Made by a program: the position numbers and the translations under genes. DNA of 63,867 nt, filler included, from Asterionella formosa (Eukaryota): the NCBI GenBank assembly GCA_002256025.1. It is 11 parts of 11 records of this genome, joined end to end, with 100 filler letters (N's around TTAATTAATTAA, not from the genome) between each part and the next. Parts side by side here need not be neighbours in the genome. Positions count along the whole stretch, not along the records: positions 24,892 to 31,006 come from NKIB01012817.1; 10 more parts are not named here. One strand, given 5' to 3'. Position 1 is the first letter of the stretch, and every line of letters starts with the position of its first letter. Below are positions 2,786 through 61,840 of this stretch, in pieces. The notes under the pieces are model-generated. The model ran no database searches. It saw only the letters and a program-made list of their open reading frames with translations, and had not been told where the DNA came from.

Positions 2786-3089
2786 CTATGCATTTAAGGC
2801 TACTTTAGTATACATGAAGATTGTACTGAAAATGCATTGCAACGATGTGCGCACTAATAAACCATAAATGTTTGGTTGCCGGCGCAAGCCACAATCTTCT
2901 TTTATTTGGCTACGGTCGGATTCTAATCGACCAAATACTTGATATTTGGTTGATAAGGGGGTCATCCTCAAACTAGACCAAAGCATGTTTGGTCTTGGTC
3001 GATGCGGCGGCTAAAATATTTTTGCTTTTTCGACCAACACATTGCATCATGACATGTAATGACTCACAGTAATTTTGATTTGTATGTAA

Positions 3090-3470
3090 AGACAATCACA
3101 TGGGAGACCTTATTATACCAGAACAATGGATTGAAAGGGTGATACAAGCTCTATGGCAAATGGACGTTATCGATAGTTGGAACCACAGAAATGAAGAATT
3201 ATATGGTAAAACAGAAGGAGAACAAATGAAAAGGATGGTGGCAGAGGTTGATTCACAGATAAGGGTACTTCGCTTGATATGATCAAGATCAAGGAAAAGT
3301 GCGTGAGGAGAAAGATATGTCCTTCTTTTTACTTCCAGTTGAAGTAAGAATTAAGCGTTACGATCTTATCAAGAACGTAAATGGGTTGAATCAGTCGACC
3401 TGGCTTTCAATGCCTGGTATCGTGCCAGGGTGGCAGAAATAACAGATGGAGCTCGGCTTCGCCTCGCACC
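3090..3470 (+). pseudogene. C-terminal fragment of a diatom non-LTR retrotransposon ORF (Ambal-like)
   Basis: WIERVIQALW..IDSWNHRNEELYGKT...QIR is followed after frameshifts by FLLPVEVRI..KWVESV. This resembles the W..RN...G C-terminus of stramenopile non-LTR polyproteins. Confidence 0.45.
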
Positions 3471-3937
3471 ACTATGGGACTCTGGAACTGATTTACATAC
3501 CGGGGGTATATACCTTTGTGCGTGGAGTGATATCGAAACTACATACAGCCACGTAGATACTATATAAATGTATAAATACAAACCATGAGCATACATGTTG
3601 GCATACTCCTGATGTGTGTTTTGCCCTTGAGCAAAATCATGTCTACATTCAGCAACGTAGATATGGTATTGAGGTTTAAATATCATTTTTGTTTGTTTAA
3701 AATGGATTTCTATCAATCTGGTGCCGATTCCTAGCTATTTCATTCAAATATTCAAATGGACACTCGAATCATGGGAATTCATAGTAGGAAATTCCTTGTA
3801 CCTCACCGTTTTACAACCTTAGCGACGTTTTCTCCGAACTAGGGTTTAGCCGGGGCCATGAAATCAGTCAAATTCAGTCACAACAGTGTACATTGGGGTG
3901 TCCATGACAATGAAGTATATGGGTTTACCTTTAAATT

Positions 3938-4008
3938 GTGTTATTTTTTCTATACACATTAAATATTTGTGAGTGTTGCGCCAGATGTACAAAGGAGGGT
4001 ACAGGTAT
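3938..4008 (-). repeat. Partial inverted copy of the pogo-like terminus at 24067 and 61718
   Basis: The reverse complement contains ATACCTGTACCCTCCTTTGTACATCTGGCGCAACACTCACAAATATTT...TAGAAAAAATAACA, which matches the other copies. Confidence 0.65.
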
Positions 4009-5158
4009 GTTACAATTTAAGGCGCTTCTTCCAAGCGTGCTCCAGTATCACAACCCTGGAATGATCTGTCACAATCTTTTTCGCGCCGTCTGTTTGCTCA
4101 TTATTCTAATAATATTATATATATAAATACTCTCTATATCCATTTAGATACTCAGACAACATCAAGTCGTTGGACACCTTTCGACATCAACAGCCTATCA
4201 GACACATTCTGATACAGATACGAGGCACCATGTTTAATTTTGCTGCATTTCAACCCTAGTTTAGAGGGAGAGTTTAAAACATAATATTGAGTCAGAGTAC
4301 TCAAACACAGACTTCTTACGAGTAAAACATAAATGTATATCGCTAAATGGAGCTTTCACCAATATACCGGTACACCCTTTCCATATGCTTAGATACAGTC
4401 ATTGACAAAAGTAGGGGGGTATACCGGTAGTTCACCGCAATATATCGTCAGGATATAGGATCTGATGAGATGTAGACTGGAAATTTCGGGGGAAATTACT
4501 TTATTTGGCATAGTAAAAAAACCGGAAGTTCCTTTCTCCAGTTTCTCGCAGAAGTTCTTATATACAGATGCTATTTGAAGGTTACTTATGTGTCTAAATC
4601 GCCTTCAGACCCAGCCAACGTTGAGCTATCGTCGTCCAAAAATTCGACAAAATCGGCCTTTTCTACCATCTCCAAAATATCAGAAACAGAACCACTTAGC
4701 ACCGAAACGTCATCATCTGAATCAGAGCCTTGTGATGCAATATTTAGTTGTCAAATTTCCAATACCAAAAATTCCATTGTAAGTGCGTGCAGTATTACTA
4801 AAGATGTACTGATTGCCTATTTTGCAAAATACTTCCCACCATGTGATTGTGTAAGGAATTGCAAACCCACACCGGCCACATTGGATACACATGTAACATT
4901 TCTTTGGATGTACCGGTAGGCTGGTACTATATCCAGTGCGGGTACCAGAGGATTACTATCATTGGAAATCATACGTGTGGTACCTGGTACCACTCGTTGA
5001 TTGCAATTTCAAATATTTGCCAAGCCGCCGGGTCGTATTTAAGAAAAGTAATCGTTGGTGAATATGCATAGCCGGTACATTGATGAACAATGTCTATGTA
5101 TATTTTTAGCTATTCAAAAAGGAATCTATGCACTGATTTGAATATTTCAAACGGAATC

Positions 5159-6228: not shown

Positions 6229-6795
6229 AAACAAGGTTTAAACAGCTGGTGTAGGAGCTCGAAAAAAGGCATGGTCAAACCCACACAAGGTAATCAGAGC
6301 ATCATCATGCTTGCTGTTGAACAAAGTCCAGAATGGACTCGATAATGGATGCTGTAGTGCGTGGCGACGGATTTTGCCACTTCTTCTTCTGACCTCATGA
6401 ACAGTCAAACTTTCCCTGATCGATGGTGTCCTATTTACTGGTGGATAGCACATTGCTAACAGTAGCAATGTGATCATAATGTCATCATCATCATCATCAG
6501 GAGATGAGATGAAAGTCGACATCATGGTCAGTGACCAACGATGATGAATATATAGAACTCATGCATATAATGAACAAGAGGCGGCATAGCATACAAGAGG
6601 ATGCATCGATATGAAAATTTAACTGTTGAAAATTAAAGTTAAAAATATATATTATGTCAGAGAAGTAATCTAAAATATCTCTATTTTCAGAGCGCAAGGA
6701 CGATATTATGTAGCAGATCACCAGAATAATTTGTGTTATACTAATACACACATGATATAATAATTTTTTATTATCAGAGCGCGCCCAATAATGAA
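6229..6795 (-). mobile_element. 5' part of a Harbinger-like (DDE_Tnp_4) transposon; second copy of the family at 20300-20830
   Basis: Clear nucleotide similarity to 20298-20832. Encodes RRRSGKIRRHALQHPLSSPFWTLFNSKHDDALITLCGFD. Confidence 0.8.
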
Positions 6796-19399: not shown

Positions 19400-20590
19400 A
19401 TGGCATTTCTATCAGCATTCCTATGCAAATAGGGCATATACACTGCTGAAGCAACAATCTGGTTCTGACAAACTTTGCTAGCACAAAAGTTGTAAAGCAA
19501 TCAATAATTTGGATTATTAACGAAATTTGTCTTTGATTCTCAGAAATGATATCTGAAAGCATCGCATTTCCTATTCAGACAGCTGTCAGATTGAGGTGGC
19601 TTGGCGATTCACATCAAATCTTTGTTGAGGATTACTAATTACGACATCAACATTATTTTGATGCGATTTCAACAGTGCATCTGATTTCTTAGATGCAAAT
19701 GCTGAATCCACAACTACTTTTTACCTGTATCCCTGTAAACTGTTTCATTCTGATCATAGATCGATGACCAAATTGCCATGATGAGTAAGCAATGGAGAAC
19801 ACCAGGTGCATTGAAATATGAGCAGCAAATTTTGCCATCAGGCGAAAAAAGCAACATGTTTGTCACATAGTGTTATTGATTTATGAGTCCCTCCATTGTA
19901 GAAGTTGTTCTGCTGTGTTTCATTTCCAGCTCGTTGCAAGGCCAGTTTTATAACATCCATTGCTCCCCAAAAATTTGTTATAACTGGGTATTTCTGATTG
20001 ATCATGGTTGCAAGCAACAAGGGAACTCCATTTGCAGTAGGCAGTCTCACAATGGCATCTTTATGTGTCAGCAGTACGTTTACAACCATTCGCCTTGAAA
20101 ACCTCAACCAAACACTCAAAGAACCATGTGTTAAGCCAAAAATGATTTGAAGAATCATATAGGAACAATGAGTCCTGGTCCATGCTAACCCAAGCGCTAG
20201 AAAACTGATGGAACAGAGGTATCTTTGCCGAACTTTCTTGGTTGTTGAATTTCTAACTATGAAATCCGTATTTTTCCTACAGGGAGTCAAGCAATCAAAA
20301 CAAGGTTTGAACAGATGGTGTAGGAGCTCGAAAGAAGAATTGTCAACCAACAAAAAGGTTATTAGAGCATCATCATGCTTGCTGTTGAACAAAGTCCAGA
20401 ATGGACTTGACAATGGATGCTGTAGTGCATGGTGACAGATTTTGCCACTTCTTCTTCTGACTTGTCAAACTTTCCCTGAACAATGGCGTCTTATTTACTG
20501 GTGGATAGCACACTGCTAACAGTAGCAATGTGATTATAATGTCGTCATCATCATCATCATCATCAGGAGATGAGAGGAAAGTCGTCATGG
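19400..20590 (-). pseudogene. Harbinger-like DDE_Tnp_4 transposase, degenerate
   Basis: SPFWTLFNSKHDDALIT, LALGLAWTRT, LQIIFGLT..SLSVWLRF, WGAMD.IKL.LQ.AG..QQN.FYNG, followed by NAPGV and VVVDSAF remnants. Confidence 0.85.
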
Positions 20591-21544
20591 TCAGTGACTG
20601 ACAATGATGAAGGCAATATATGGAGCTCATGCATATAATGAAGAAGAGGCGGCATAGCATACAAGAGGATGCATCGATATGAAAATTTAACTGGTAAAAA
20701 TCAAAGTTAAAAATATATCTAATGTCAAATAAGTAATCTAAATTATCTCTATTATCAGAGCGCAAGGGCGATATTATGAAGCACATCAATAAAACAATTT
20801 GTGTTATAATACACACAGAGCGCACCCAATGATGATACACCATCCTCGCCAATACTTACAATACACGAAGGTTTTTACTTTATGGAAATCATAGCTAAAT
20901 TTTTCATTTACCACAAATTGCCCTGGTAACTCGGGGAACTGCGGTAGAAGACGTTTTTACCATAAGGAAAACAAAGCAAAATTACTCATTTACCGCAACC
21001 TCCTCTGTTCTGGTACCAGGGTACTCCCTTTGGTTGAAAATAGTTGCGTCAAATCGCTGGCACCACTAGTGCGAAACCAATTATTAATTGTGCATATGTA
21101 CATATTGCCAAATGCCTTTTTACATTGGCCGGCAACTCAAATATTTGTGGGAAGCAATCCGAATACAACAAGCCACTATCATAATCATAAATTGAATAGA
21201 ATAACTGTCATTTGGTATACATTCTACGGTTGTTGCACTAACATGGACCAACCGTCGGATATTTAACAGTGATTTCCTCAAAGCGAGCATACCGTCATTT
21301 TCTTTTTTCCCATCATTGCCACTTTCAGGGTCGCGCATTCCATAGTAATTGAACACAAGCTGCCGTTGTTCTAGTACTGTTATATCGTACTTTGTATGTA
21401 TGTTGAGAATAAATGGTTCGAAGAAATATGGGACCTCGTGCATCTGGGAGTTGACAGAAACTCCAAAGTACAAAAAGTCATGTGCAAAACCTGTGTTTCA
21501 TCTAAAATCAACCTCGTATCACATTTTCCAAAAAGAAGGGAGAG

Positions 21545-23620: not shown

Positions 23621-24066
23621 TAAAGCTAAATAAATATCTACATGAAGGTTAGCCATATCTTACAATTTTTGCCAAATTGTTATCATAAATCCCAATTTTG
23701 GATTTCGGACTTAAAGAAAAGACGAAAAACATTCGAAATCTCAATATGGAGTCCAAATTGGTACTTCTCGGTCACTGTGAGCCTGGTACCAGGGTACTCT
23801 GGTTTATATCATGACACCGTGATGACTTTTTCCATTACTGAAACGAATGCAATGCTTCCAACAAAGACAATGGCCAAATACCTGGTACCAGTCAGTACCT
23901 GGTACCGAAACTAAGCAATCATACTCCGAGTACCCGTACTAAGATGTGTTAAAATCGCGCTTAAATTTATAAGCCCTACCTGTACCATGTTGTCATTCAT
24001 GACTCAAATCAGCGCTAGTGCGGCAAAGCCGATCTGTTCCATTCATGCTGGCCAACTCAGTCTTAA

Positions 24067-24190
24067 TACCGTAAAACCTGGTGTCTCGTATCCCCCCAGA
24101 TACCTGTACCCCCCTTCGTACATCTGGCACAACACCCCCAAATATTTTATGTCTACAGAAAAAATAACAGCATATTATTGTATTCTAGCT
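24067..24190 (+). mobile_element. pogo/Tc1-mariner-like terminus (TA-CCGTAAAACC)
   Basis: Similar to 61718-61840. Followed by a degenerate Cys/His-containing ORF. Confidence 0.6.
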
Positions 24191-24891: not shown

Positions 24892-25137
24892 GGGGGGTGC
24901 ATAAGGTGAAAAGTTTGAAGTGTAGCTCTTGGAGCAAGGCTTGGAAGTCCGGGACCGGTACAGTGGCGGGAGTGGGGCTGTGGGCAAGCAAGGGCAAGGA
25001 AAAAATGTTTCAGGCGGAGGTCTACCCAACGAAGGATTTGGGCCAGGAGGAGTGGGGGGCGGTTGAGGTCGTCCCAGTATTCCATTGCCAACATTTCGCT
25101 ATGGCTGAGGGCATGAATAAACAGGCGGCAGTGGGTG
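24892..25137 (-). pseudogene. Continuation of the DIRS-like ORF1 beyond the inserted TIR element
   Basis: HCRLFIHALS...LLLAQILRWVDLRLKHFF is in frame with ...VFGPHNGLTT once 25138-28989 and the 2-bp TSD are removed. Confidence 0.6.
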
Positions 25138-26399
25138 CGTCTGCAAATAAAAACCATCATATTTCCATGATGCATCATGGGATTATGATCATCTGATTAA
25201 AATTTTTCGTTGTATCATCTAATTATTTTGATAAATGCCCTTGTAATTTAAATAGTAAGCCTTTTGATTATGGGAAATTAATTATTACATGTATTGTTTC
25301 TTTCAGGTTCCTTTATTTCAATTTCTTGGTAGGATAATGTACCAGTTAGAGTAATGTGGTTTGGCTCATCATCCTTGCCAATCCTCACTCTGATTCTTGT
25401 AACAATGACAAACCAGCCTTGTCGAAAGGAACGAGTTTGTGATAAAATCTTCATTTGTCGTTCAAGTCATCATATGTCTTCGATGAATCATCCTCTACAT
25501 TGCACAGTATGTTCGTACTATGCAATCCGTTAAGAGCTTGAAAAGAAATCCAATGAAAACGAAATGGCTCATCACATAAGACGAATATTTCCGGTCTGTC
25601 ACCAGAGTATCAATCAGTGTTACAACCTCGATCATAGCTAAACAACATCCATTATAGATCTGCACAATCTACTTCTCCATAACATCGTCTCTCTAACAAA
25701 AACGTAATCCATCTAGAATTGAAACGCAGCATAGCAGGCGATATGCACAAAGAAGCATGAGACTGTCTATTTATAGTAACACTGTGATCCTGGTTTCGTA
25801 ATTTTCATGCCTCATTAGATTTTCTTTGTCATTGTACTAGTTCCTTACCTTTAAAGACAGGAGCGTTTTCTTTGATGCATCTGGAATATTTCAATGGATG
25901 GCAGCAGTTGGATTTAGAAACAAACCTTGACAAAAGCACTGATACTTTGTAGATGTTCATGAAAAGCGAGACACTTTGACCTATCGAACACCAGCCAGTC
26001 TATACTGCAAAAATGCAAGAAGCACGAGTTGAATGACCATTTATGGATTCAAGTTTCAGTAGTGCAACAATGTAAAATATTAGAAACCGGAAGTCACATT
26101 TCATCTAATTACGGTTTTCATTAGCTGTACTAGCTAGTGTTGATTGGTGCGAGGAAGCAATGGTAGAATTGCTGCCAAACGGGCAGGGCAAACACAGAAA
26201 ATCCTATTAATTTTTCTCCCCAATGATCCCAGACCCTTCTTGAATGTCACTTGCTAGAGAAAATGGAGAACAGCCGCCGTGATCTGTTGATTGTTGCTTT
26301 ATGATGCCACTGACCCAAACCTTGCTCCAGAAATCTCAATGAGTTGCTTGTTTCTTGACTTAAATGCAAAAGGGATCGAAGCCAGTGGAAAATCAAAAG

Positions 26400-27117
26400 G
26401 GAACTAAAAATGATCTGCAAAAATCAGGACAATTGTGAAAGAGAAATGAAGGTTCTTGGGAGGAGAAGTAAAGGGATAATTGCTTCTGGTCTTGCGGGAA
26501 CAAGAATAGATTGACCCAAACAATGTTGACAAATAGGTACCTACGGGAAAAGGAAGCAATGCTTTCGACATCATCAATCTAGCTATACACAAGCCTGCGC
26601 CATCAAATGTCATCAATATAGCTACCTCGACTTCATCAATGAAGAAGTCAATGGGTGGAGCATGTGAGGAAAATCCGGGTTGAGGTTTTCTTGACGCCAA
26701 CGTGGACCTGCTTGGCTGAACTCCTTGAAGATGAAGGCATTGAGTAATCTGGGTCTGTGAAGCCAAAGGATAAAGAAAAATCTATGACAAGGGTGGTGAG
26801 ATAGTGTTTAGGAGGGGGGAGCAAAAGTTATCATAGCTGAACGCATTCGAAACTTGTATCGACAATAGATGGTGGCATACCATTGCTGCTCTTGGCTGAC
26901 AGCTGCCAAGTCAAGTACAAACACAACGAGGGTGCATAAAAGACAGTGCGATTTTAATCGACTGGCTGATACTTAGTTGTGAGACTCACCATTCTGCAAT
27001 GGGGTGGACTTTGATCATTGCTTCGTTCAAAGCACAATCAATTCGAATGCTGTCCAGTGAAACAGCCAATGAAAGCAATTGTGGCGAAAAAGCGCAGAAC
27101 AGATCAAGAGATTTCAT
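26400..27117 (-). pseudogene. Intron-rich gene remnant inside the TIR element
   Basis: ATG at 27117. Introns GTGAGT..GCAG (26989-26903) and GTATGC..ATAG (26880-26782) flank a 22-nt exon. The spliced frame joins ORF 26404-26766. Confidence 0.4.
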
Positions 27118-28094
27118 AGGAATTAAAATAACAACAGCAGGGCATATATGATGCACTGCTCCTTGTGTAGACTAGCTATATTTGATCATTTCCTTATTTC
27201 ATTCTATTCAGGTGCATGGATGACTCCTCCCGCCCTTTCATTAGATATGCAGATATGCAGCCATGTCGCGATAATTCTACAGGACCTATAGGATTGGTAG
27301 TCTGTTGCTCATCATTTCCGCATTGTATATACCAGTAGGAGTCATGTATGCATGCATGCTGCGATAATTCTTACAAGACATAAAAATTTGGTAGCTTGGG
27401 AGTTATCTCTTCCGGACTGTATACAGGGGAGGAAATGGTTGCATGCATGAGCAACGACTACTCCGGTATAAACTATGATCTTTAATCGATGATTCTTGAT
27501 TCGTTTATCCTATGATACCTTTGATCATAACATATTGATCATATGATGAACGGTGTCGTTGATGAGAAAATGAAAGATCAAAATTTATTTTCAGGAATCA
27601 GGATTAATTGATCTTAAAAATATGATCAAATGATCCTAAACACATTAGCATGTTCAGTTTTCCGCTACACTATTGTGGCATTTCCATGATTAAAATAATT
27701 CCCAGGAAGTATACAGTACTACCGGTAGGCCATATGAATTTTGGTCAATATGTCCATATACATAAATGTATGATTTCGACCATTTGAAAAATTGGTGCTG
27801 ATGACTCCCGTTTATTTGGGGGCTTAATAAAATCAGCCACTGACTTGTAGGTACAAGAATTGACTCATAAAAATATTGAAAAAAACTCAACACGTCGTGG
27901 AAAACAATGAACTCATCATGCATTGTATATATTTGAATTATGTATAATCAAAATTGATATTAGTATACACAGGATGTGCCGTATAATGAGCGTGTTTAAA
28001 GCTATGCAAATGTTCAACTATATATACATTTAAACTTCTTACAAATCTTTATATATATGTATTCATGGCTGAAATATTTGAAATCATTTTTTTA

Positions 28095-28417
28095 TGTTCC
28101 TTGTCATGCATACACTTTGCTCCTGAAATGAAGAATTATCACACATGATGACGCGGAAAACGAAAGTGATAATACAGCACAATGATACTTGCGGCTTAGA
28201 AGAGAAGGGCGGAATCAATTGATGGTAAGTCAAGAGCAAATGCCTTTCATGTTCCTTGTCATGCTGCATACACTTCCTGAAATGAAGGATCTCAAGCAAC
28301 ACATGATGCGAAAAACTGAAGTGACAATACAGCACGATAAGAATGAGTGAATATGATGGAGAAGGGCGGAATCAACAAGCTTTGCATAGCATCACGGTTT
28401 GTCAAGAGCAAATGCCA
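28095..28417. repeat. Degenerate ~155-bp tandem duplication inside the TIR element
   Basis: TGTTCCTTGTCATGC...CCTGAAATGAAG...AATACAGCAC...GAGAAGGGCGGAATCAA...GTCAAGAGCAAATGCC occurs twice. Confidence 0.8.
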
Positions 28418-28890
28418 GGATGATCAATTGCTGGGATTACAAATACGGAATGACTCAGCCCCTTTCAGTGATTCAATAGCAGCTCCTTTTCGATTTGGTG
28501 GCTGGCCAACCATCAATGTGGACAAAAGAAATCGGTAAGTGCTGCCTATCAGCCATCTTTGGATCAATCTGCAACTGTTAGAAAAACTGACACATATGTG
28601 TTGCTTCTTTCAGGATAATGGTAGACAAACAGTATTTGTAAGTTACAAACAGCAGTGTTGGAGCTCATTTATTGATTGATACTTTGCTTCTCATTCAATC
28701 TTCGACTGACACATTCTTCTACAGAAATATGCATCAGTTACTTCCTCAATTTGTGGTAAGTGAAGCAAGATAGAAGCGAAACGCATGTTGTTGTGTAAGC
28801 AAAACATGAACAGCTAACAATGAATTGCTTCTCTTTGTTAGTATGGCTGATTGGAACAACGAAACGGATTCTATAGTAATACATTGATCA
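28410..28890 (+). pseudogene. Micro-exon gene inside the TIR element
   Basis: Three GTAAGT...CTRAC...AG introns (28535-28613, 28638-28724, 28756-28841) separate 24- and 31-nt exons. The spliced frame reads APFRFGGWPTINVDKRNRIMVDKQYLNMHQLLPQFVYG*LEQRNGF. Confidence 0.6.
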
Positions 28891-28989
28891 TATTTTTGAT
28901 CAAAAAACTATTATATATGTAAAAATCCTGTGCCACTTAGCATATGATACCCTTGATCCTATATTCATGATAGTTTTTATTTACAGACG

Positions 28990-30640
28990 TGGTCAAGCCA
29001 TTGTGTGGCCCAAAGACCTCTGCCAAAACCAGGAGGAAGGATTTGAGTGTTATCAAGGCATGCCAGCCACATGGGGGGTGGGAGGGGAAGCTTGGAAGCT
29101 TCCTTGAGAGCAAGAACATCAGGGAGGGTGAGGGTGTTGGCGCCACCATGGAGATCTGAGGAGATTGGCAATAGGTCTTTGAGGTGAGCGTCAAGGGCTT
29201 GGGAGACATTTGTCACCAGAAACATGGTGAGGCCTGTGTCAAGATCATGGAGGTTGCCCACAAAATTACATCTGGTGATGGCATTTACGAGGGCGGGGGT
29301 CGCCACAGGGGAGTGGGTGGAGTCTAGGTTCTTTTCAATGGGGGCACACTGAAGGAAACATTGGTGGAGAACGTAGGCCGCTTCCCCTTTCAGAGCATCG
29401 GCTAGCTCATGATAGAGTGTGCATAGTTCCTCTTCGATGTCAACATCACAGAATTTTAGGAGGAATCATGGGATGGCCCCTTGGAAGCGGTGGGAAGGGA
29501 GTTTGGGGCTGGAGGTGGGGTCAGCAGGGGTGTCACAGGAGCGGAGCAAAGCATTGAGGGCCTGGGTCAGGGCAGCAGGGGCGCAAGGGAGCTGATTGAG
29601 GCAGAGGGTGATGGGGTCCTAGGTCCCTGTGAACCACTGTGGCTGTGTATTTGGCAATGGCTCCATTGAGAGGAGTGACAAACCAGCTGGGGAGGTGGGA
29701 GGAGGTTTCCCGGCAGGACGTCCATGGGGTCTAGGGGGTTTGGCCCCTTCCATACATTTGCGATTCGTCACCATGCAAGAATGTCGGTGTGAGCATCCCG
29801 GAGACCCTTTGCCAGGATCTGGCCGCCCAAATCCTGCCATGCTTGCCGGGGTCTGAGGTCCCGGTTGATGAGGATAGCGGCAAGGAATGGGGGGAGGTAC
29901 ATAGAGTGGCAAACATGAACTATTTCTGTGGTGCCCGGTTGGAGGGGAGCAGTTTCAGGAGGGGTTAAAGGGCCCAAGAACTCCCCAGGGCCTCCATGTT
30001 GGTCCCAATTGTGAAGGGCTTCATCCATTGTTTCGATGGTTGGGACATGTAATGGTTCAAGAGGAGCAAAGATCTCGTCACCAGCATAAACTAAATGGAA
30101 CTGTTGGGCTACTACATCCCCAAGCAAACCAAATACATAGTTGTCCCATGGAGTTGGAACACCCAGCCGGCCTGGATAACGGAAGATGCGATGTAGGCAG
30201 GTGACTTTGATTTTTCCATGGAGTTGGGAAGGACGGCGAAAGCTAGGTGTGGAGGTTCCCCACTAGTGATGGCAGTCATGAGGTCCTGGGAATTGACCGG
30301 GGTCGGGGTTTGAAGAAAAAGTTTTGCACAACAGGGGCATGATTTCCTCGATTGGCATCAAAGGTTGGGTCCTGAAGCCATTCAGAGTAGGATTACATGA
30401 TGGTTGAGAGTCAGATGTGCCAAAGGATGTTAGGTGTTTAGAATATTGTTCTGGTGGTGTGTAGTGCCAAAACTGTGCCCGTGGTGCCAAAACCTGGGCC
30501 ATGTCCAAGCCTGCGTATTTTGTAAGTTTCTGGTAGTACCCTCTTGTAATAGTGTAATAGTTGGGTATCCTTCGTCTGGAATAGCGTAATTTACTGTGGC
30601 GGAGAGGTGGATGGGACTTGGAAACAAGGGGGCACACTGA
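28990..30640 (-). pseudogene. ORF1 (gag-like) of a probable DIRS-like tyrosine-recombinase retrotransposon, frameshifted
   Basis: LHRIFRYPGRLGVPTPWDNYVFGLLGDVV, MYLPPFLAAILINRDLRPRQAW..LGGQI and ATPALVNAI..NFVG..HDLDTGL.MF recall ORF1 of diatom DIRS-like elements. No RT or YR is present in the contig, so the class is inferred. Confidence 0.5.
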
Positions 30641-31006
30641 TGGGAGCCACCACTAGCAGCCGAGGAAGAGGAGGAGGTTTTGAGACATTGTAATGAAAAA
30701 GGGCTTGTGACAAGTGTGACAAGGCGCGGCGTTGTGGATCGGTGAGGGGAGCTTCGATGAAGCGATCAGAAATGAGCTACGGCGGAAAGAGAAAGGTTCC
30801 GAAGTCTCAGAGGCAAGGGTTTCGACAAGACAGGCTTCCAACGGGATGGCTTGGCTGCTGTACCGAAGGGGGAGACTGTGATGGTCTCCGTTCCGGTCTT
30901 ACCAGTTGAATGACAATGGTGTGATTCAACAAATTTATGAAGGTTCCGATTCAACAGCCAGCAGTTTCTGCGAATTGGGGGGAGGGGGGGGGGGGGGGCG
31001 GGCGCC

Positions 31007-31106: not shown

Positions 31107-31915
31107 ATCTTAAACTTATTTAGAGCCAAATCCATTAGGGAGTCCACGCTAAAATCGACTCTCCCATCATGATACTGATCCTGCTGTCCTACCATGTAGT
31201 CGTGGAAAACCTTGTCTTCAACAGCCTCATAGGCCGTAAACAAGTTAGTCAAAAGGTCAGAGGAGGTTTCACCGCGGGACATGAGGGCATCGCGCTGGAC
31301 ACGAACATGTAGGTTGAACTTTTCAATATCGCAATTTACGGACAGCATGTATTGGTCCAATGCACTTAGTGTTCGTCGAATTGTCGCCACAGTAGATCTG
31401 GTATCCACGGTGCACCTTGTGATGAGGAGTTTCAAGAATGCCGCTCCACTGGCTACCACAAAGGTGTGGTCAGTAGGTGATACCAGTCTGTACGTAGCGG
31501 AGTCTGTGGAGACTTTTAGTAGTGCCTCAAGTGATAAAGAATCATAGATGCACGTAAATAGTTGTGCACTGTTCTGTGCGTCACGCGTATGCGTATGGAC
31601 ATGTGCGGCTGCGTGAGCCACTACATTTGCCATAGACACTCTCCCATATTCAGTAATCAGGTTCCTCCCAATGTTCTGGTCATCGGGGACAGTAAGGATG
31701 GATGCCCACCCGAACGCATCCGCTCTCTGCTGCAAGGCTTGAAGAAAGAGGCGGAGACTTCCTGTTTCACCATCGAAGGTATGGTTGAGTTTCTCAGTAG
31801 CAGACTTGTACAGTTTCATCCCTTCGTTGGAGTTGTAATTCACAGGATCGGGGTTGGCAAGAGCCGGCGTGAGTGCAAAGACGAAGGCCGCAGGGGCATT
31901 GATTGCTTGAGCCAT
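31107..31915 (-). mobile_element. Gag of a CoDi-type Ty1/copia retrotransposon, intact frame, cut by the contig end
   Basis: FALTPA..YNSNEGMKLYKSAT..FDG, RADAFGW, NLITEYG, RDAQNSAQLF.CI..SL, DTRST...IR..L..LD.YM..DIEKFN, LLTNLF.AY....DK.F. Confidence 0.85.
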
Positions 31916-32396
31916 GTTGGGAGCGAGTCCGCGAAGTCGAGGAGATCGACGAAGAATGTTAGAAGGAAATCTGGAGACGACGTTTTGTCGTTGTAAGCGC
32001 AGGGGAAGCGTGAGGGAAACCACCGAATATCAAATACAAATAAACGTAGTTTAATAACCAATAAGACAGGATCAATATCGAACGAATCTATTTTAGTTAT
32101 ATGAGATAGTATCGTCATTTCCACAAAAGGCAACTCATCAACCATCAGTTGGATCGCTCACAAAACGGCAACAAGAGAAGACCGGGAACATTCGAATATA
32201 CATGAATGACACCTGGAACATCGCCCATACCACCTCTCAAATCGATACTGAGATCGCCACCAAACATTGTCAAGGAGGACCCAGCAGCTTTGATGGAAAC
32301 GGCATCGGCATCTGAAGCAAGTTACAAATCGAATCCAACAACAACCGAAAACAAACCCGGAAACCCATCAGATACTTTCATACCGGGATCGTAAGA

Positions 32397-32951: not shown

Positions 32952-34178
32952 ATGATGGGCTGCGTCTTCAAAATTATCCTTCATTTCTCGAAGGAGATTT
33001 CGAATTTATATTTCTCGTTCTCCGCCCATAGAAATTACCAATGGTCGGAAGAGTTTTCTGTTGCTATTGCTATTGCTATTGCTATTGCTATTGCTATTGC
33101 TATTGCTATTGCTATTGCTATTGCTATTGCTATTGCTATTGCTATTGCTATTGCTATTGCTATGTTGGGGACCACGATGTTGGTGCAATTGCTCGGGTAT
33201 GTGTTTGTCTTTGTCTTTGTGTTTGTGTTTGTCTTGTCGGGGGCTTCGTTGTTGTCGCAGTTTTTGGCGTATGGGTCGATCTTGGATTCGGATTTGGCGG
33301 AAGTGTTGAATTTCGTGTCAGGGGCTGTGTTGGGGGAAATGTTTGGAGAATTGGTTGGGAATATTGAGAAATGGATCTTCGTTTTGGCCTTTTTTGTGTT
33401 GGTTCTGAAAAAGAGTTATTGTGTCAAGGCTTTGGTAGTGTTCGCTTTCAAGTTTTATGGCAATGGATGTGAATCAAGAAAGACAAAGGTCAAGGCTTCT
33501 GGGATGCAAGATGGTGTGGTTACAACAAAGGTTGCTGAATACATTTCCGACAATGAAGGCAAAACACAAGTTTTCATTTCCGACAATGAAGGCAAAACAC
33601 AAGTTTGTATGAAGGATGCTAGTGTGACTACTATTGTAAATGCAATGTCAGACCTTGTACTGAAAAGTACAAAGTCGTCAATTTGTTCTTACCCTGTGCA
33701 ACCTATGAAGTCCCCTCCTCGTCTGAGTGAGAATCCAGCCGAAGGGTCGCCAGCGAAAGTATTCAAGCTGACATGGCTGCCGACTGTCTCACTGCATCCC
33801 TACTATGCACCTGGAGACGGATTGGTACCTCAAGTGAACGTGAAAGCAAGTTCTGTTTCTGTTGCTCCGAAAGTCTATAGGGGGTCATCTTATGCTTGTC
33901 CTCTGCATACGGATTACTGGGTGGATTACAGGCCAGCCAAGGAATGCCACATGCGACGAGATGATTTATGGTTCCTACATTCCTACTTTTCTCTCAAATC
34001 ATGGAAATCAAGAAAGATGGAGATTAAGGCTATGCTAGATGGTGTGGTTGCAAGAAAGGTTGCTCAATACATTTCCGACAATGAAGACAGAATGCAAGTT
34101 TGTATGAAAGATATCAGTGTGAATGCTATTGTAAATGTATTTTCTGCACCACTTGAACTGAACAAAACTACTGAATGA
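32952..34178 (+). CDS. Uncharacterised 408-aa ORF with microsatellite-encoded hydrophobic tracts and an internal duplication
   Basis: Open for 1.2 kb. Contains (AI)n and (VF)n tracts and a repeated KVA.YISDNE..QVCMKD.SV module. Confidence 0.4.
   Translation: MMGCVFKIILHFSKEISNLYFSFSAHRNYQWSEEFSVAIAIAIAIAIAIAIAIAIAIAIAIAIAIAIAIAMLGTTMLVQLLGYVFVFVFVFVFVLSGASLLSQFLAYGSILDSDLAEVLNFVSGAVLGEMFGELVGNIEKWIFVLAFFVLVLKKSYCVKALVVFAFKFYGNGCESRKTKVKASGMQDGVVTTKVAEYISDNEGKTQVFISDNEGKTQVCMKDASVTTIVNAMSDLVLKSTKSSICSYPVQPMKSPPRLSENPAEGSPAKVFKLTWLPTVSLHPYYAPGDGLVPQVNVKASSVSVAPKVYRGSSYACPLHTDYWVDYRPAKECHMRRDDLWFLHSYFSLKSWKSRKMEIKAMLDGVVARKVAQYISDNEDRMQVCMKDISVNAIVNVFSAPLELNKTTE
33061..33162. repeat. (TTGCTA)17 microsatellite
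   Basis: Perfect hexamer run. Confidence 0.97.
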
Positions 34179-35845: not shown

Positions 35846-36031
35846 GAAACAGGGTTCAATTTTGTACCATTGTAGGACTCAGATTGACACTACATGCATG
35901 ATATCTACTGCTAATAGCTGTACTGGTAGTACTAGGGGTTCCGAGGACTCAGTCAATTATGAACATCAATTGAGAACAACAACAATCAACAATATACCTA
36001 TGGAAGCGACCCACTGCCACATCAAAACATC

Positions 36032-37217
36032 ATGTCAGACAATGAAGAAATAGTTTGTGCATCTCAAGATAGATGCATGGTGAAGGAGCTTCCAAGGTCA
36101 ACTGCACATAACTGCCCGGGATGTGGGTATAGCATTCATGCTCTTAGCGGCCATTTGCATGAAGAAGCAGATATTCAGTTCAAAACAACATGCTTCCATT
36201 GCTATGAAAAGTTCGGTCGCGCCCTGATGGATCCAGATGATGCAACTGCATTGCAACAACTCCACCAACAAGATGAAGAGAGGAGACATGATTCCAATCA
36301 AGGACAAGAGGAGGGCATGGTAGTACTTGCACATGTCAATATATTGGATAGCATTTTACCACCAGAGATTGACAAACAAGGCAGCACTCGTATTAGAGAA
36401 CGTGATACACGAAAAGCGAAGAAGGAAGCAAATAAAATGAAGTCCTTACAGCTCATGAATTTAGCAAATATCAGAGGGAACACAAGAGCAAAATCAACAA
36501 AGAGGCGGCACCAGTCTGAACATGAAGTCTTTCTGTTATATCTTTATAAACATGAGGACCAGCTACTAGGACCGGATATGCTAGAGCAAATCAGATATAT
36601 CACTGATGATATTGACAACATTCCCATTCATATGAAGAAAACAAGATCAGTGATACGCAGTTTTCTTGAAAGGGAAGTCTGTACAGGATTGCATCCAATT
36701 AAATTTGAGGACTTAAAGCCTACAGACTTCGCAAAGTATCTTGGGACCCTCAGTAATCCAGTGACAGGCTGTCTACTTAGTCAGAAGATGTATAAAAACA
36801 AGAAAACATCACTTTACAACCTGTTTAAGAAGTATAAGATGAAGGTTACAGACGACTTTGATGATGAGCTGAAAGATCTCATTGCTGGCGTCAAACGAAT
36901 TGCAAGTAAGGCAAAACAAGATGGGATGGGTAGCCTTGAGGAAGGAAAACGTGAATTGACAATCGACCTGTACCGAAAAATAAGCATATGGTTGATTGAA
37001 GATGGCTCTCCATCAGCTGTTTTTGCACGTGCATTTTTATGTCTAACTTGGAATTTGATGTGCCGTGTTGATAGTACTGATGGTGTCTGTATCAAGCATT
37101 TGGTTTGGAGTCAAGATGCTGTGGGGATTCGATTTTCTCATACAAAAAATGATCAAGATGGCTCCAAGAATTTCAAGCCCCGACACTGCTACACCAACCC
37201 TGAAGATTTTGCATTGT
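36032..37217 (+). mobile_element. CryptonS-type tyrosine-recombinase transposase, 3'-partial, intact frame
   Basis: EGKREL..Y, FARAFLCLTWNLMCR (first catalytic Arg), L.WSQDAVGIRFSHTKNDQDG (catalytic Lys) and PRHCYTNP form the stramenopile CryptonS signature. The N-terminus is Cys/His-rich. Confidence 0.85.
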
Positions 37218-50463: not shown

Positions 50464-52007
50464 ATGATAAGAACGACCCTTAGTAGTACTGCGCCAGAAT
50501 TCCGTCAGATGGTTAAATTTGACAATGATGTTCTATCATCAACAACCAACTTTTTGGATCCTTTCTATGCTGACTTAATGATTTACTTACATTCTGGCAT
50601 GCCCATGGATCCTGACATAGCTAGTCTACAGGCGATGGCGTCAACACCAGTATGTGCTATTGACACACTGATATTATTTGTACATTCGCTGTCATTGTCA
50701 TTTACATTTTTATATTTTACTCACACAATAATATCATCAACAGCCTATCCAAGAACAAATGGATATCCTTGCTACTTAAGCAAGACTTGCAAATCAAATC
50801 GAAGCATGCAACACGCGTCTCAATGACAGAGCAATTGATCCCGAAGACAATGTTGATTTGCTTAAACACAAACTCAAGAGGCGTAATGAGCAAAGGCATG
50901 AGGCTAGGAATGCGAAGAGGCAGGCATTGGAATCAAAGAGATCAACAAGTGAGGATCTTGTTGTCGATGAGAGGAATAGAGCAGCAATCATGAGAGCTAG
51001 TAATGTTGCAATGTCATTGGTGGATAAAATTAAAGTGAAGAATCAAATGGATGCAATCACATTGGCCAAGTCTGCAAACTAATCTGGGTGGGAACTCCTC
51101 CTTCAGATTCTCATTGCAAATGTCTTTCCTGCAACTGTTCCAAGTAGTACTGGAACTGCTTGCGAGGTGGAAAACAATAGCATTTCCAGTACCAGCCACT
51201 CAGATGAATTATATATCATCGATAAAGCATTGAATGCTGATGTTGCATGCTCTCTTGAAGACAGAAACTCGTCATCTGATGAGGAGGACAATGAAAATAC
51301 GGATAGCGTTTGTGAATAATTTAGTAATTATATAATTTAATTAGCTCCAGATAATTTCATTTCTTTCGATGGCCTCTCTGTAGAGATGAACTAAATTAAC
51401 TCTCCTATTTATTTATGCTTGCTTTTCAATCGCAGTTGGAGCATCAATAGTGTCCTCCACATTATCACCATCAAAATCATTGCCAACAACAAATTCTTTA
51501 TTATTGTTTTCTAAAGCTTGAGCCATGATGCGATGCTGATGCCTTGTGTAGTATCCATCAGATCCACCCTCATTTGTTCCTCTTGGTCCAACACATCATT
51601 GACTAAGAAATTGTAGACAATATTTTGCCAAGGATCATCAGTAGAATCCCTCTGGGAGGACAGCAAGGAGGACAAGGAGGCCATGGCGGATGGGTCTGAG
51701 TGAGCGATTGTTGATTGCAATCACATACTGGTTTTTAATACATAAACGAATAGTCGGTCAAGTGAAGCTCTATTAATAATGTTATTCTTTTTAGTGCTTT
51801 GGGTGTGAAATCAATTTCCTGAACGTGACTAAAGTTTCCGACGAAAATCAACGAATTTCCTTATGTGGTGAGTTGAAAAAATTTTGAGTTTCAGGAAATC
51901 AAACCCGGAAAACTCACGTTTCCGACATGGCAAGGAACGGACAAGAATGATTTTCAGGAAAAAATATGAGTCACGAGGTTTTTTCCGGTGCAGTAAGCAA
52001 TGGCCTT
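50464..52007. mobile_element. Internally deleted transposon remnant, possibly Harbinger, with convergent ORF debris
   Basis: Broken charged ORF on + (50560-51320) and acidic ORF debris on - (51380-51700). The right end reads TAAGGCCATTGC on the reverse strand, like a TAA-GGCC Harbinger end. Confidence 0.35.
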
Positions 52008-52011
52008 ATAG

Positions 52012-52252
52012 ATGTAGTATGTATGTATCCATGTATTTATGTATGTATGTATGTATGTATGTATGTATGTATTTATGTATGTATGTATGAATGAATGTAT
52101 GTATCTATGTATCTATGTATGAATGTATGTATGTATGTATGAATGTATCCATGAATGAATGTATGAATGTATGTATGAATGGATCCATAAATGTATGTAT
52201 GAATTTATGTATGAATGTAGTTATGAATGTATGTATGTATGTATATATGTAT
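52012..52252. repeat. Compound (ATGT)n/(ATGA)n microsatellite
   Basis: Directly visible. Confidence 0.95.
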
Positions 52253-53759
52253 TTAGTAATTATGGGGTTTGTGTTTGGATCATCATGGTCAAGTACGAAA
52301 TTTATTGTCAATTTTAGGTAGACTTAAGTAATCATGGCAATAATGACGGCATGGTGATTTTTTGATTTTGTGCTTGAAAACTGTTTGGGATAGGGTTAGA
52401 GTTTCAATCAAAAACATCAACACAATGTTACTCCTAGAATATGTGGTCACCTCTTCAAGGTTTGCATATTTATTGTTTTAGTCTAGCTGCTTTTCTTGAA
52501 ACTAGATATTCATCAACCAGCAAAGTATGTGAACTTCGAACATCTGGTTTGTTCATCCATACTCGTCCATTGACTCAGTAGCGGGTATCGTGGCAAAATA
52601 AACTTGTTTCGACTACCACAAGGTGATGAGAGTACAATTGCTTTGTCAAAACTACTAGGGTTGAACTAAGGCCTTTCTTGTAAGCGCGATTAAATTAATT
52701 TAGCATGGACCTCATCCAGATACTAGCAATGGGAATAGGCTCAAGGACTGCTTTCTTGACTGGGTGGACAAGGGACAAAGCGAAAACGTTCGAATAGCAA
52801 TATGCACTGCTGAGCCAGATCGAATCTCTCCAGTCGATGTTGTATGTGAGTTTCTTGCATTTGATTTTGTTTCTTTTATCGAGTTGCTTCCAATGAACTC
52901 CTCAATTTGCAAATGAATAATGTTAAAAATCTCTTCCATACTTGGACGTTCAGCAATCTGATGCAACCAAGCAAGCGCTGTGAAGCATGTCTCGAATGCC
53001 TGGAGGCCAACATGCATACCCTTCGAGTGCAGTGCCACTATCCTTGATTTCTTGAGACTTCTTAGTCGAGTGTGTTTGATTGAGGGAAAGCATAGATCAT
53101 ATCAGAACTCTATCAGGAGAGAGTTTGACGAATATCTATTGTATACGTCAGTTTCAACTTAGGAGAACAAGTTGCAAACAAGGATTAACTAATAAGCTCA
53201 TAAATTGAACAATACTCTTACTTCTATTTAGATACTTCACCAGGTACCAGTAAATAAATGCTATAGATAGGCAACAGAGGTGGCTGCGAATAGAGTATCA
53301 TGGAACCAGTTTAAAAAAAATTCACAGTGTATACAAAGATTTTTTCTAATTTTGTAATTGTGACTATTTTCAGTACGACAAAATTGTTTCTGACGTTGCG
53401 CCGAATACTAAATATCTTGTTTTCGATTAGGTCTTGTGTTTTAGATAATCAGATAAATGTGTCGGAAAGTAGCAATCGGCCCAAAAGTGGCAAAACAATA
53501 TTATACCATTGAGCCGGCATCCCCCGGAAATACACATATACGTATGTGAATGGAAAAAACTTAATACCTATTTTGTTGCGTTTAACCTCCGGACAGGTTG
53601 CTATAGCAAAAAATGAATCAATTATTCACACTTAGTAGTAAATGAATGCACTATTTCTTTAAGGCAAAAAATCGAGCGAATTTTATATGTCAGAGACCGT
53701 AATTCACATCAGAAATTGCTTCTGACACACCAAAACTGAAGCAGATCGCGATCATCTCA

Positions 53760-61581: not shown

Positions 61582-61717
61582 GTTAGTTGCATCGAAAGAT
61601 CTAAAGTGGATTGGATGTTGGTGTTCATTAGCAGAGGAATATTGCAGCATACCTCTGATAAAGTCTTTCAACGGTGAACATCAACAGTAGGATGTTGGAA
61701 GATACATTTGTCCAATA

Positions 61718-61840
61718 TACCGTAAAACCCGGGGTCTCGTATTCCCCCAGAGTCTTGTACCCCCTTTGTACTTCTGACACACAACACTCCCAAAGATTTT
61801 GTGTGTACTGAAAAAATAACACAACGTAATTCTATTTATT
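61718..61840 (+). mobile_element. pogo/Tc1-mariner-like terminus (TA-CCGTAAAACC), about 140 bp upstream of the ABCG start
   Basis: Similar to 24067-24190. Confidence 0.6.

Follow-up and report, generated by a model that had tools for sequence, protein, structure and literature searches.

What kind of transposon inserts with a variable duplication of only 2 bp and carries terminal inverted repeats (TIRs) that start with CGTCTG? The question is raised by an element at positions 25138–28989 of a stretch of Asterionella formosa DNA (assembly GCA_002256025.1). The whole stretch of 63,867 nucleotides, filler included, is called the window here; it is a chain of contigs of ~6.1 kb with N spacers, and the element lies entirely within one of them (G000:C12817:247–4098). 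An earlier description made from the sequence alone, the original prediction, had taken it for a complete element with no recognisable transposase and perhaps of a new lineage. We have found that the element is real and well delimited, that the target-site duplications (TSDs) of its family, family A, are 2 bp long and variable in sequence, and that its ends are common with a longer family, family C, which has a Plavaka transposase between them. The window element is very probably a non-autonomous derivative of Plavaka (CMCT clade) with CGT..ACG ends and a mariner-like cargo.

Ends, empty site and target-site duplications

The two TIRs, CGTCTGCAAATAAAAACCATCAT at the left and, reading inward, CGTCTGTAAATAAAAACTATCAT at the right, agree in 21 of their 23 positions. 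The element is adjoined by TG at both ends. Searching the genome with a degenerate TIR pattern gave 255 exact matches (a count that takes in family C ends as well as family A ends) against 0 for the reversed control. Many of the other copies have unrelated flanks and fix both boundaries independently; the 23-bp TIRs and TG flanks of the original prediction are borne out by the sequence.

With the right flank of the element as query we found four matches in the genome, including the window's own contig, C12481, C10853 (L163) and L164. C12481 carries the same insertion at its full length of 4241 bp, with TG again directly before the terminal CG. The paralog of the interrupted host open reading frame (ORF) on C10853 is the empty site: it has a single TG at the junction, is open across it and reads VFGPHNSLTTHYRLFIHALR. 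Removal of the element with one TG had been predicted to rebuild the host frame, and the paralog has the predicted reading apart from point substitutions. The empty site, together with the same insertion on C12481, therefore tells that the boundaries and the TSD length had been read correctly. An alternative boundary, with a start at TCTG and a duplication of CG, was ruled out, since the empty site contradicts it and the bases just ahead of CGTCTG vary from copy to copy. In a further paralog, L164 (G000:C15315), the same site has 4 extra bases (TG, two bases, TG), which may be the footprint of an excision or a small insertion of separate origin; a family C right end is found ~190 bp from this site.

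The TSDs of family A were scored in 42 left-right pairings of ends taken from all fetched loci, excluding the window element's own pair and including alternative pairings of nested ends (L087, L116, L203), a duplicated site (L170/L172) and a truncated flank (L160). An exact duplication of 2 bp was present in 23 of them and one of 3–10 bp in none (0/42), while shuffling the flanks 10,000 times gave a mean of 3.9 matches and a maximum of 12. These 23 duplications are A/T-rich and include 12 different dinucleotides (AA 5, TA 4). A 2-bp TSD had been predicted, with the tabulation of the flanks of other copies as the check, and the exact duplications do have a length of 2 bp; their sequence varies. 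The six end pairs available for family C gave three exact 2-bp duplications, one with one mismatch and two with no match. As a separate observation, AA is the commonest family A duplication in left-to-right orientation, and the flanks of the family A ends have a weak symmetric bias in raw counts, with C at −3 (33/91, 32/83) and T at −6 (36/91, 35/83).

Among 174 distinct ends, 110 start with CGT, 29 with TGT and 19 with CAT. The TGT and CAT tips (48/174 together) fit the expected products of CpG decay at a CG tip; with the terminal CpG decayed so often, host methylation may directly erode the tip that the transposase would bind.

A longer family with the same ends

Full-length copies of family A measure ~4.25–4.3 kb. 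The window copy is ~420 bp shorter near the right end (family positions ~3718–4138 are missing) and is in that respect not the complete element that it had been taken for. Using an internal 60-aa frame as query we obtained at least 150 genome matches (all 150 scored, the best 150 of 343 candidates), which is a lower bound for the copy number. The rows of the family alignment have a median identity of 94% to the consensus. Neither the consensus of 39 copies (majority or CpG-aware) nor a pile-up of 171 rows with minority alleles restored an intact or long ORF, and therefore the family was already broken and non-autonomous when it spread. In the window copy Pfam gave no match in any of the three + frames, and it gave no real match in 15 frames of three family A copies and the host ORF. 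The first homologue search returned only a copy of the same element, and protein searches of the own genome with family A pieces were saturated by family A (best 150 of 343 and of 432 candidates). Two old internal tandem duplications are visible in the family A consensus (2929–3057 vs 3084–3214 and 2104–2179 vs 2197–2273, 73–78% identical), and a similar one with a ~200-bp period is found near the left end of family C.

Longer copies with the same ends and a transposase were what the original prediction had proposed to look for, and family C answers to this description. We compared 179 TIR-like ends, 29 of which deviate from family A; most of these are deletion or rearranged forms and about ten represent family C. 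It has the same TIR as family A, ~80% identity to it over the left ~400–450 nt and 82% over the right ~160 nt. The middle piece of family C, L249 (C15149:16300–20800), lies between CGTCTG ends ~9.8 kb apart (L042 left, L260 right); in two more copies, L178 and L192, it is joined to the family C left end, and on C4143 it is joined to the right region. Its minus strand codes for a frameshifted transposase in which we could read, by eye, CRDC [C(2)C], then HAMKH [H(3)H] and then Glu; the CRDC motif is present also in P0128. A sequence 88.8% identical to L249 over 1.5 kb, L250, whose own ends are unseen, matches the Pfam family Plavaka (PF18759) with 30.6 bits, the cut-off being 26.3 (E 2.6e-7), and 29 of its 30 neighbours in the ESM atlas belong to the Plavaka set (best score 0.97). 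Pfam gave no match in the six frames of L249 itself and reached only E 0.16 with P0128; on C10890 a weak Plavaka match (25 bits, under the cut-off) is found at the expected place.

With the family C transposase piece as query we obtained at least 150 genome matches. Where TIR and transposase occur on one contig, 21 of 27 cases among the matches listed have the expected side, strand and a distance below 9 kb (the 27 include some family A ends among the TIRs, and C4775 is counted twice). Again among the matches listed, the largest group of distances to the left TIR is near 6 kb and those to the right are ~4–6.7 kb, which suggests a full length of ~10–12 kb for family C. A possible third and more diverged type of right end was seen at L006:1–345 (G000:C14630), 70% identical to family A and 79% to family C; this end adjoins a repeat with at least 40 copies.

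Plavaka is placed in the CMCT clade, which has C(2)C and H(3–4)H motifs (Kojima 2025, PMC12730594). As marks of this clade we used PF18759 in the element or its partner, both motifs between the second Asp and the Glu, and a variable TSD of 2–5 bp. PF18759 is found via the partner family C only, family A itself being without Plavaka coding sequence; the two motifs are in the frames of L249, and the TSDs of families A and C are both variable and within this range. Two groups are described in the part of that source used here: fungal PlavakaA, with 2-bp TSDs and TGT..ACA ends starting TGTCGG or TGTCGC, and PlavakaB, with 2–3-bp TSDs and CATCA..TGATG ends (PMC12730594). The elements studied here are like PlavakaA in their variable 2-bp TSD, in their short TIRs with a YGTC start followed by an A-run (fungal TGTCGG/GCAAAAAT vs CGTCTGCAAAT here) and in a partner transposase with a PF18759 match and C(2)C and H(3)H motifs. 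They differ in the first base, which is T there (TGT..ACA) and C here (CGT..ACG), and in the host, a basidiomycete there and probably a diatom here; besides, family A is non-autonomous and carries a Sagan-like fragment. The CATCA..TGATG termini of PlavakaB agree neither with the window element nor with the prevalent CGT of the 174 ends, and the CAC termini of canonical EnSpm/CACTA elements are also different from the CGT found here.

Because the working is like that of PlavakaA but the terminal base is not, we file the element under Plavaka/CMCT and not under PlavakaA. The nearest precedent had been sought in the EnSpm/CACTA group, to which CMCT is related, and this was a good guess. The suggestion of a lineage that could not be classified finds no support, with a longer family that has the same TIRs and encodes a Plavaka transposase and with 2-bp TSDs and TGTC.. 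ends known from PlavakaA; neither the window element nor family A is a new superfamily. Transposase_21 (PF02992) had 0 matches in this genome and also 0 in the control genomes, so that the blank is no proof of its absence. Of the other suggestion, a Pack-type carrier, the foreign gene fragments are borne out: the cargo that could be identified derives from another transposon's gene and not from a host gene, with no real Pfam match in the frames scanned. The fragments identified leave about 1.3 kb (27050–28360) and the stretch 25590–25870 without an assignment. Among algae, the giant Plavaka elements of red algae, classified under EnSpm, are likewise large, high-copy and mostly degenerate (bioRxiv 10.1101/2025.02.11.637652). 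They differ in size and content, with 17–19 kb and the accessory genes PAG1–3 against ~10–12 kb in family C and 4.25 kb in family A.

The Sagan-like remnant and the proposed origin of family A

No transposase had been recognised inside the element, and here the original prediction did not hold. A profile of 12 family A frames detected P0005, an intact 130-aa fragment (E 1.2e-5), and hhalign of 12 other family A copies against P0005 gave a probability of 97.6% (E 4e-12). Searching with P0005 led to 188 proteins, including full-length forms of ~1000 aa and some whose names assign them to the diatom Fragilaria crotonensis. It is from such named homologues and from the taxa in the ESM atlas that a diatom host is taken as probable. 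With a profile of 22 full-length homologues two collinear + strand pieces were located in family A, at profile positions ~410–486 and ~720–1000. The first had an independent E-value (i-E) of 1.3e-13 in the family consensus and of 7.5e-10 in the window copy, enough to detect the frameshifted remains of a ~1000-aa DDE transposase; the second is weak in the window copy itself (i-E 0.02–0.2). Profile positions ~487–720, with the conserved D542 and D676, are absent from the remnant.

By conservation, the catalytic residues of P0010 are D542, D676 and E897–900, and a very long insert separates the Glu from the second Asp. The neighbours of the ~1000-aa homologues in the ESM space are DDE_3 clusters with scores of 0.88 and below, which serve as leads only, and Foldseek of the AlphaFold model of P0010 (pLDDT 76, pTM 0.51) gave none at E<=0.001, Mos1 being the top match with E 0.03. 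Sagan is a divergent branch of the IS630-Tc1-mariner (ITm) elements with a long D-E insert, TA targets and stramenopile members (PMC3164196). We call the homologues Sagan-like on these described features and not by alignment to a Repbase Sagan sequence. The full-length forms fit the description of an ITm-type DDE transposase with a long D-E insert; family A holds a broken internal fragment of such proteins, without both Asp residues and already interrupted in the family consensus, and the window element does not have the TA duplication of Sagan. The Sagan-like piece had thus decayed before family A spread. The ~1000-aa homologues are common in metagenomes, mostly without a Pfam label; when metagenomes were scanned with P0010 we found 2 loci but no pair of TIRs.

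What ends a Sagan-like element has in this genome could be seen in family B (L228, G000:C2747:4551–7940), a nearly intact element of ~3.4 kb with a ~1000-aa transposase. Its imperfect TIRs of ~45 bp, with about 40 left ends in the genome, are unrelated to the CGTCTG ends, and TA precedes the terminal T in 18 of 22, the ordinary ITm pattern. Since a near-intact Sagan-like family has TA targets and unrelated ends, the Sagan-like pieces in family A are probably cargo. A Sagan-like mariner with relaxed targets was our initial reading and was dropped after the ends of family B and the Plavaka evidence from family C.

We propose that family A arose from a C-like ancestor of Plavaka type by loss of the Plavaka transposase region, and that it would have retained, besides the CGTCTG TIRs, the left ~450 nt and the micro-exon and right-end region. 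It would have gained a Sagan-like IS630/Tc1 element, probably as a nested insertion later deleted down; fixed nested insertions in giant transposons of Ectocarpus (PMC12477816) offer a precedent. The transposase of family C, or of a close relative, may then have bound the shared TIRs in trans and excised the family A element, and the Plavaka enzyme would have cut targets of a loose A/T bias with a stagger of 2 nt on insertion, leaving an NN duplication. The family is probably also transcribed. In RNA contigs of two libraries, both from one study, the third intron of the micro-exon region, at 28756–28841, is skipped and appears spliced (L091 4588–4671; the skipped part is marked 'between: not known'), and at a loose contig end one micro-exon runs straight into the next. 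From this skipped intron and this exon-exon end, in contigs that carry neither strand nor level information, we conclude that spliced family A RNA probably exists.

Several points weigh against a Plavaka derivation. No exact TSD is found in 19 of 42 family A and 3 of 6 family C pairings, plausibly through decay, nesting and mis-paired ends. The CGT ends differ from the TGT or CATCA of the described Plavaka groups, and tblastn detected no Plavaka coding remnant in family A or in the window; descent is therefore argued from the shared ends. No family C transposase obtained is intact, every piece seen being frameshifted, and the larger pieces read of the family are ~4.5 kb of its middle and ~2.0 kb and ~1.5 kb at its ends. 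The genome contains 39 Pfam Plavaka matches above the cut-off, so many other Plavaka loci exist besides family C, and the Plavaka ends examined are those of family C. Besides, the ends were checked for one Sagan-like family only of the several in the genome.

This last point bears on the opposite reading, in which family A would have come by deletion from a Sagan-like ITm element that lost TA specificity, kept the 2-nt stagger and has the CGTCTG ends as its own. The NN duplications would then be made by a Sagan-like enzyme without strict TA, and the CGTCTG elements would be a mariner-related lineage with near-random 2-bp targets, whose ends are also those of a Plavaka-bearing family. The only transposase remains in family A are indeed Sagan-like, collinear and on one strand, its TSDs are A/T-rich, ITm elements also make 2-bp TSDs (PMC10045372), and a metagenome contig with a whole Sagan-like gene (L225) starts with TA and then CGTCG, a candidate end. 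However, ITm elements in general duplicate TA (PMC10045372; PMC7325037), and TA makes up only 4 of the 23 exact TSDs of family A, the window copy having TG. The targets of family B are TA and its TIRs are unrelated; in family C, with the same ends and a Plavaka gene, the Sagan-like profile found no match in the first ~2.0 kb, the last 1.5 kb and the 4.5-kb middle piece, and no P0005 match was fittingly placed within exact TIRs, as judged by eye among the matches listed (100 of 255). We regard both the derivation and this account of the duplications as quite improbable.

Somewhat less improbable, and still unlikely, is that families A and C are both passengers of a third, unseen transposase, from a different CMCT lineage or from a superfamily not yet described, the Plavaka gene of family C being itself cargo or nested. 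Nesting is common in this genome, with family A copies inside family C and inside Sagan-like genes, and it is fixed in the giant Ectocarpus elements (PMC12477816); moreover, CGT is not among the ends given for Plavaka in the part of PMC12730594 used here. Yet the orientation of the Plavaka gene is constant in the 21 of 27 cases, often at ~6 kb from the left TIR among the matches listed, and the TSD length and YGTC start agree with PlavakaA as described there. An assembly artefact or a chance inverted repeat would be suggested by the joined ~6.1-kb contigs with N spacers, but the element is inside one contig, has at least 150 copies, an empty site and the same insertion on C12481; with 255 against 0 TIR matches and the TSD statistics this was refuted and has practically no chance of being right. 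A non-autonomous Plavaka derivative, mobilised in trans by a transposase of the family C type, would best account for these data.

Surroundings of the element and meaning

Table 1. Features in and around the element (window positions; a dot stands for no strand).
Feature	Positions	Strand	Remarks
3' part of interrupted host ORF	24892..25137	-	low-copy decayed repeat
Left target-site duplication TG	25136..25137	.	single TG in empty paralog L163
Left TIR (CGTCTG...)	25138..25160	+	common to the longer, Plavaka-bearing family C
Left terminal region	25138..25585	+	~80% identity to family C left end over ~400–450 nt; many ATCAT/ATGAT motifs
Decayed Sagan-like (IS630-Tc1-mariner) transposase, fragment 1	25877..26121	+	profile ~410–486 of 1000, adjoining the catalytic domain on its upstream side
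Decayed Sagan-like transposase, fragment 2	26186..27048	+	profile ~720–1000, from the end of the long insert through the region of the third catalytic residue to the C-terminus
Micro-exon region	28361..28880	+	three GTAAGT donors (28535, 28638, 28756); region kept in family C with ~68% DNA identity, and the three donors too
Junction of ~420-bp internal deletion	28880..28881	.	relative to the 4.25-kb family form
Right TIR	28967..28989	-	TIR match to the left end
Right target-site duplication TG	28990..28991	.	single TG in empty paralog L163
5' part of interrupted host ORF, itself broken	28990..30660	-	4 genome matches; upstream limit approximate

The host ORF, whose paralog gave no Pfam match, is presumably similar to ORF1 of diatom elements of DIRS/Ngaro type. 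Elsewhere in the window, a long ORF at 35963–37216 (+) is one we take to resemble a Crypton-like tyrosine recombinase; Pfam gave for it no more than a weak zinc-finger match at the N-terminus (E 0.009). A 306-aa ORF at 31108–32026 (−), presumably like the gag of diatom Copia retrotransposons, had no Pfam match. The window also has dispersed repeats that occur on more than one of its contigs, a GCTATT microsatellite and a tandem array of TATG type (6263–6743 vs 20331–20811; 24066–24184 vs 61717–61836; 33043–33168; 51977–52311).

A mariner-type enzyme without TA specificity, if it were true, would be a much weightier result, and the evidence is against it. The window element is unusual in its CGT tip, where described Plavaka groups have TGT or CATCA, and in its probable diatom host. 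Plavaka has been described mainly from fungi (PMC12730594) and red algae (bioRxiv 10.1101/2025.02.11.637652), going by the parts of these sources used here, and our literature search for Plavaka in diatoms gave no diatom transposon study among the matches listed. With the element filed here, Plavaka gains CGT..ACG termini and a probable diatom host, and for annotation an abundant unclassified repeat gets a name. It is also a warning case, as a homology classifier, going by the cargo, would assign family A to Tc1/mariner, whereas the ends and the TSD say CMCT.

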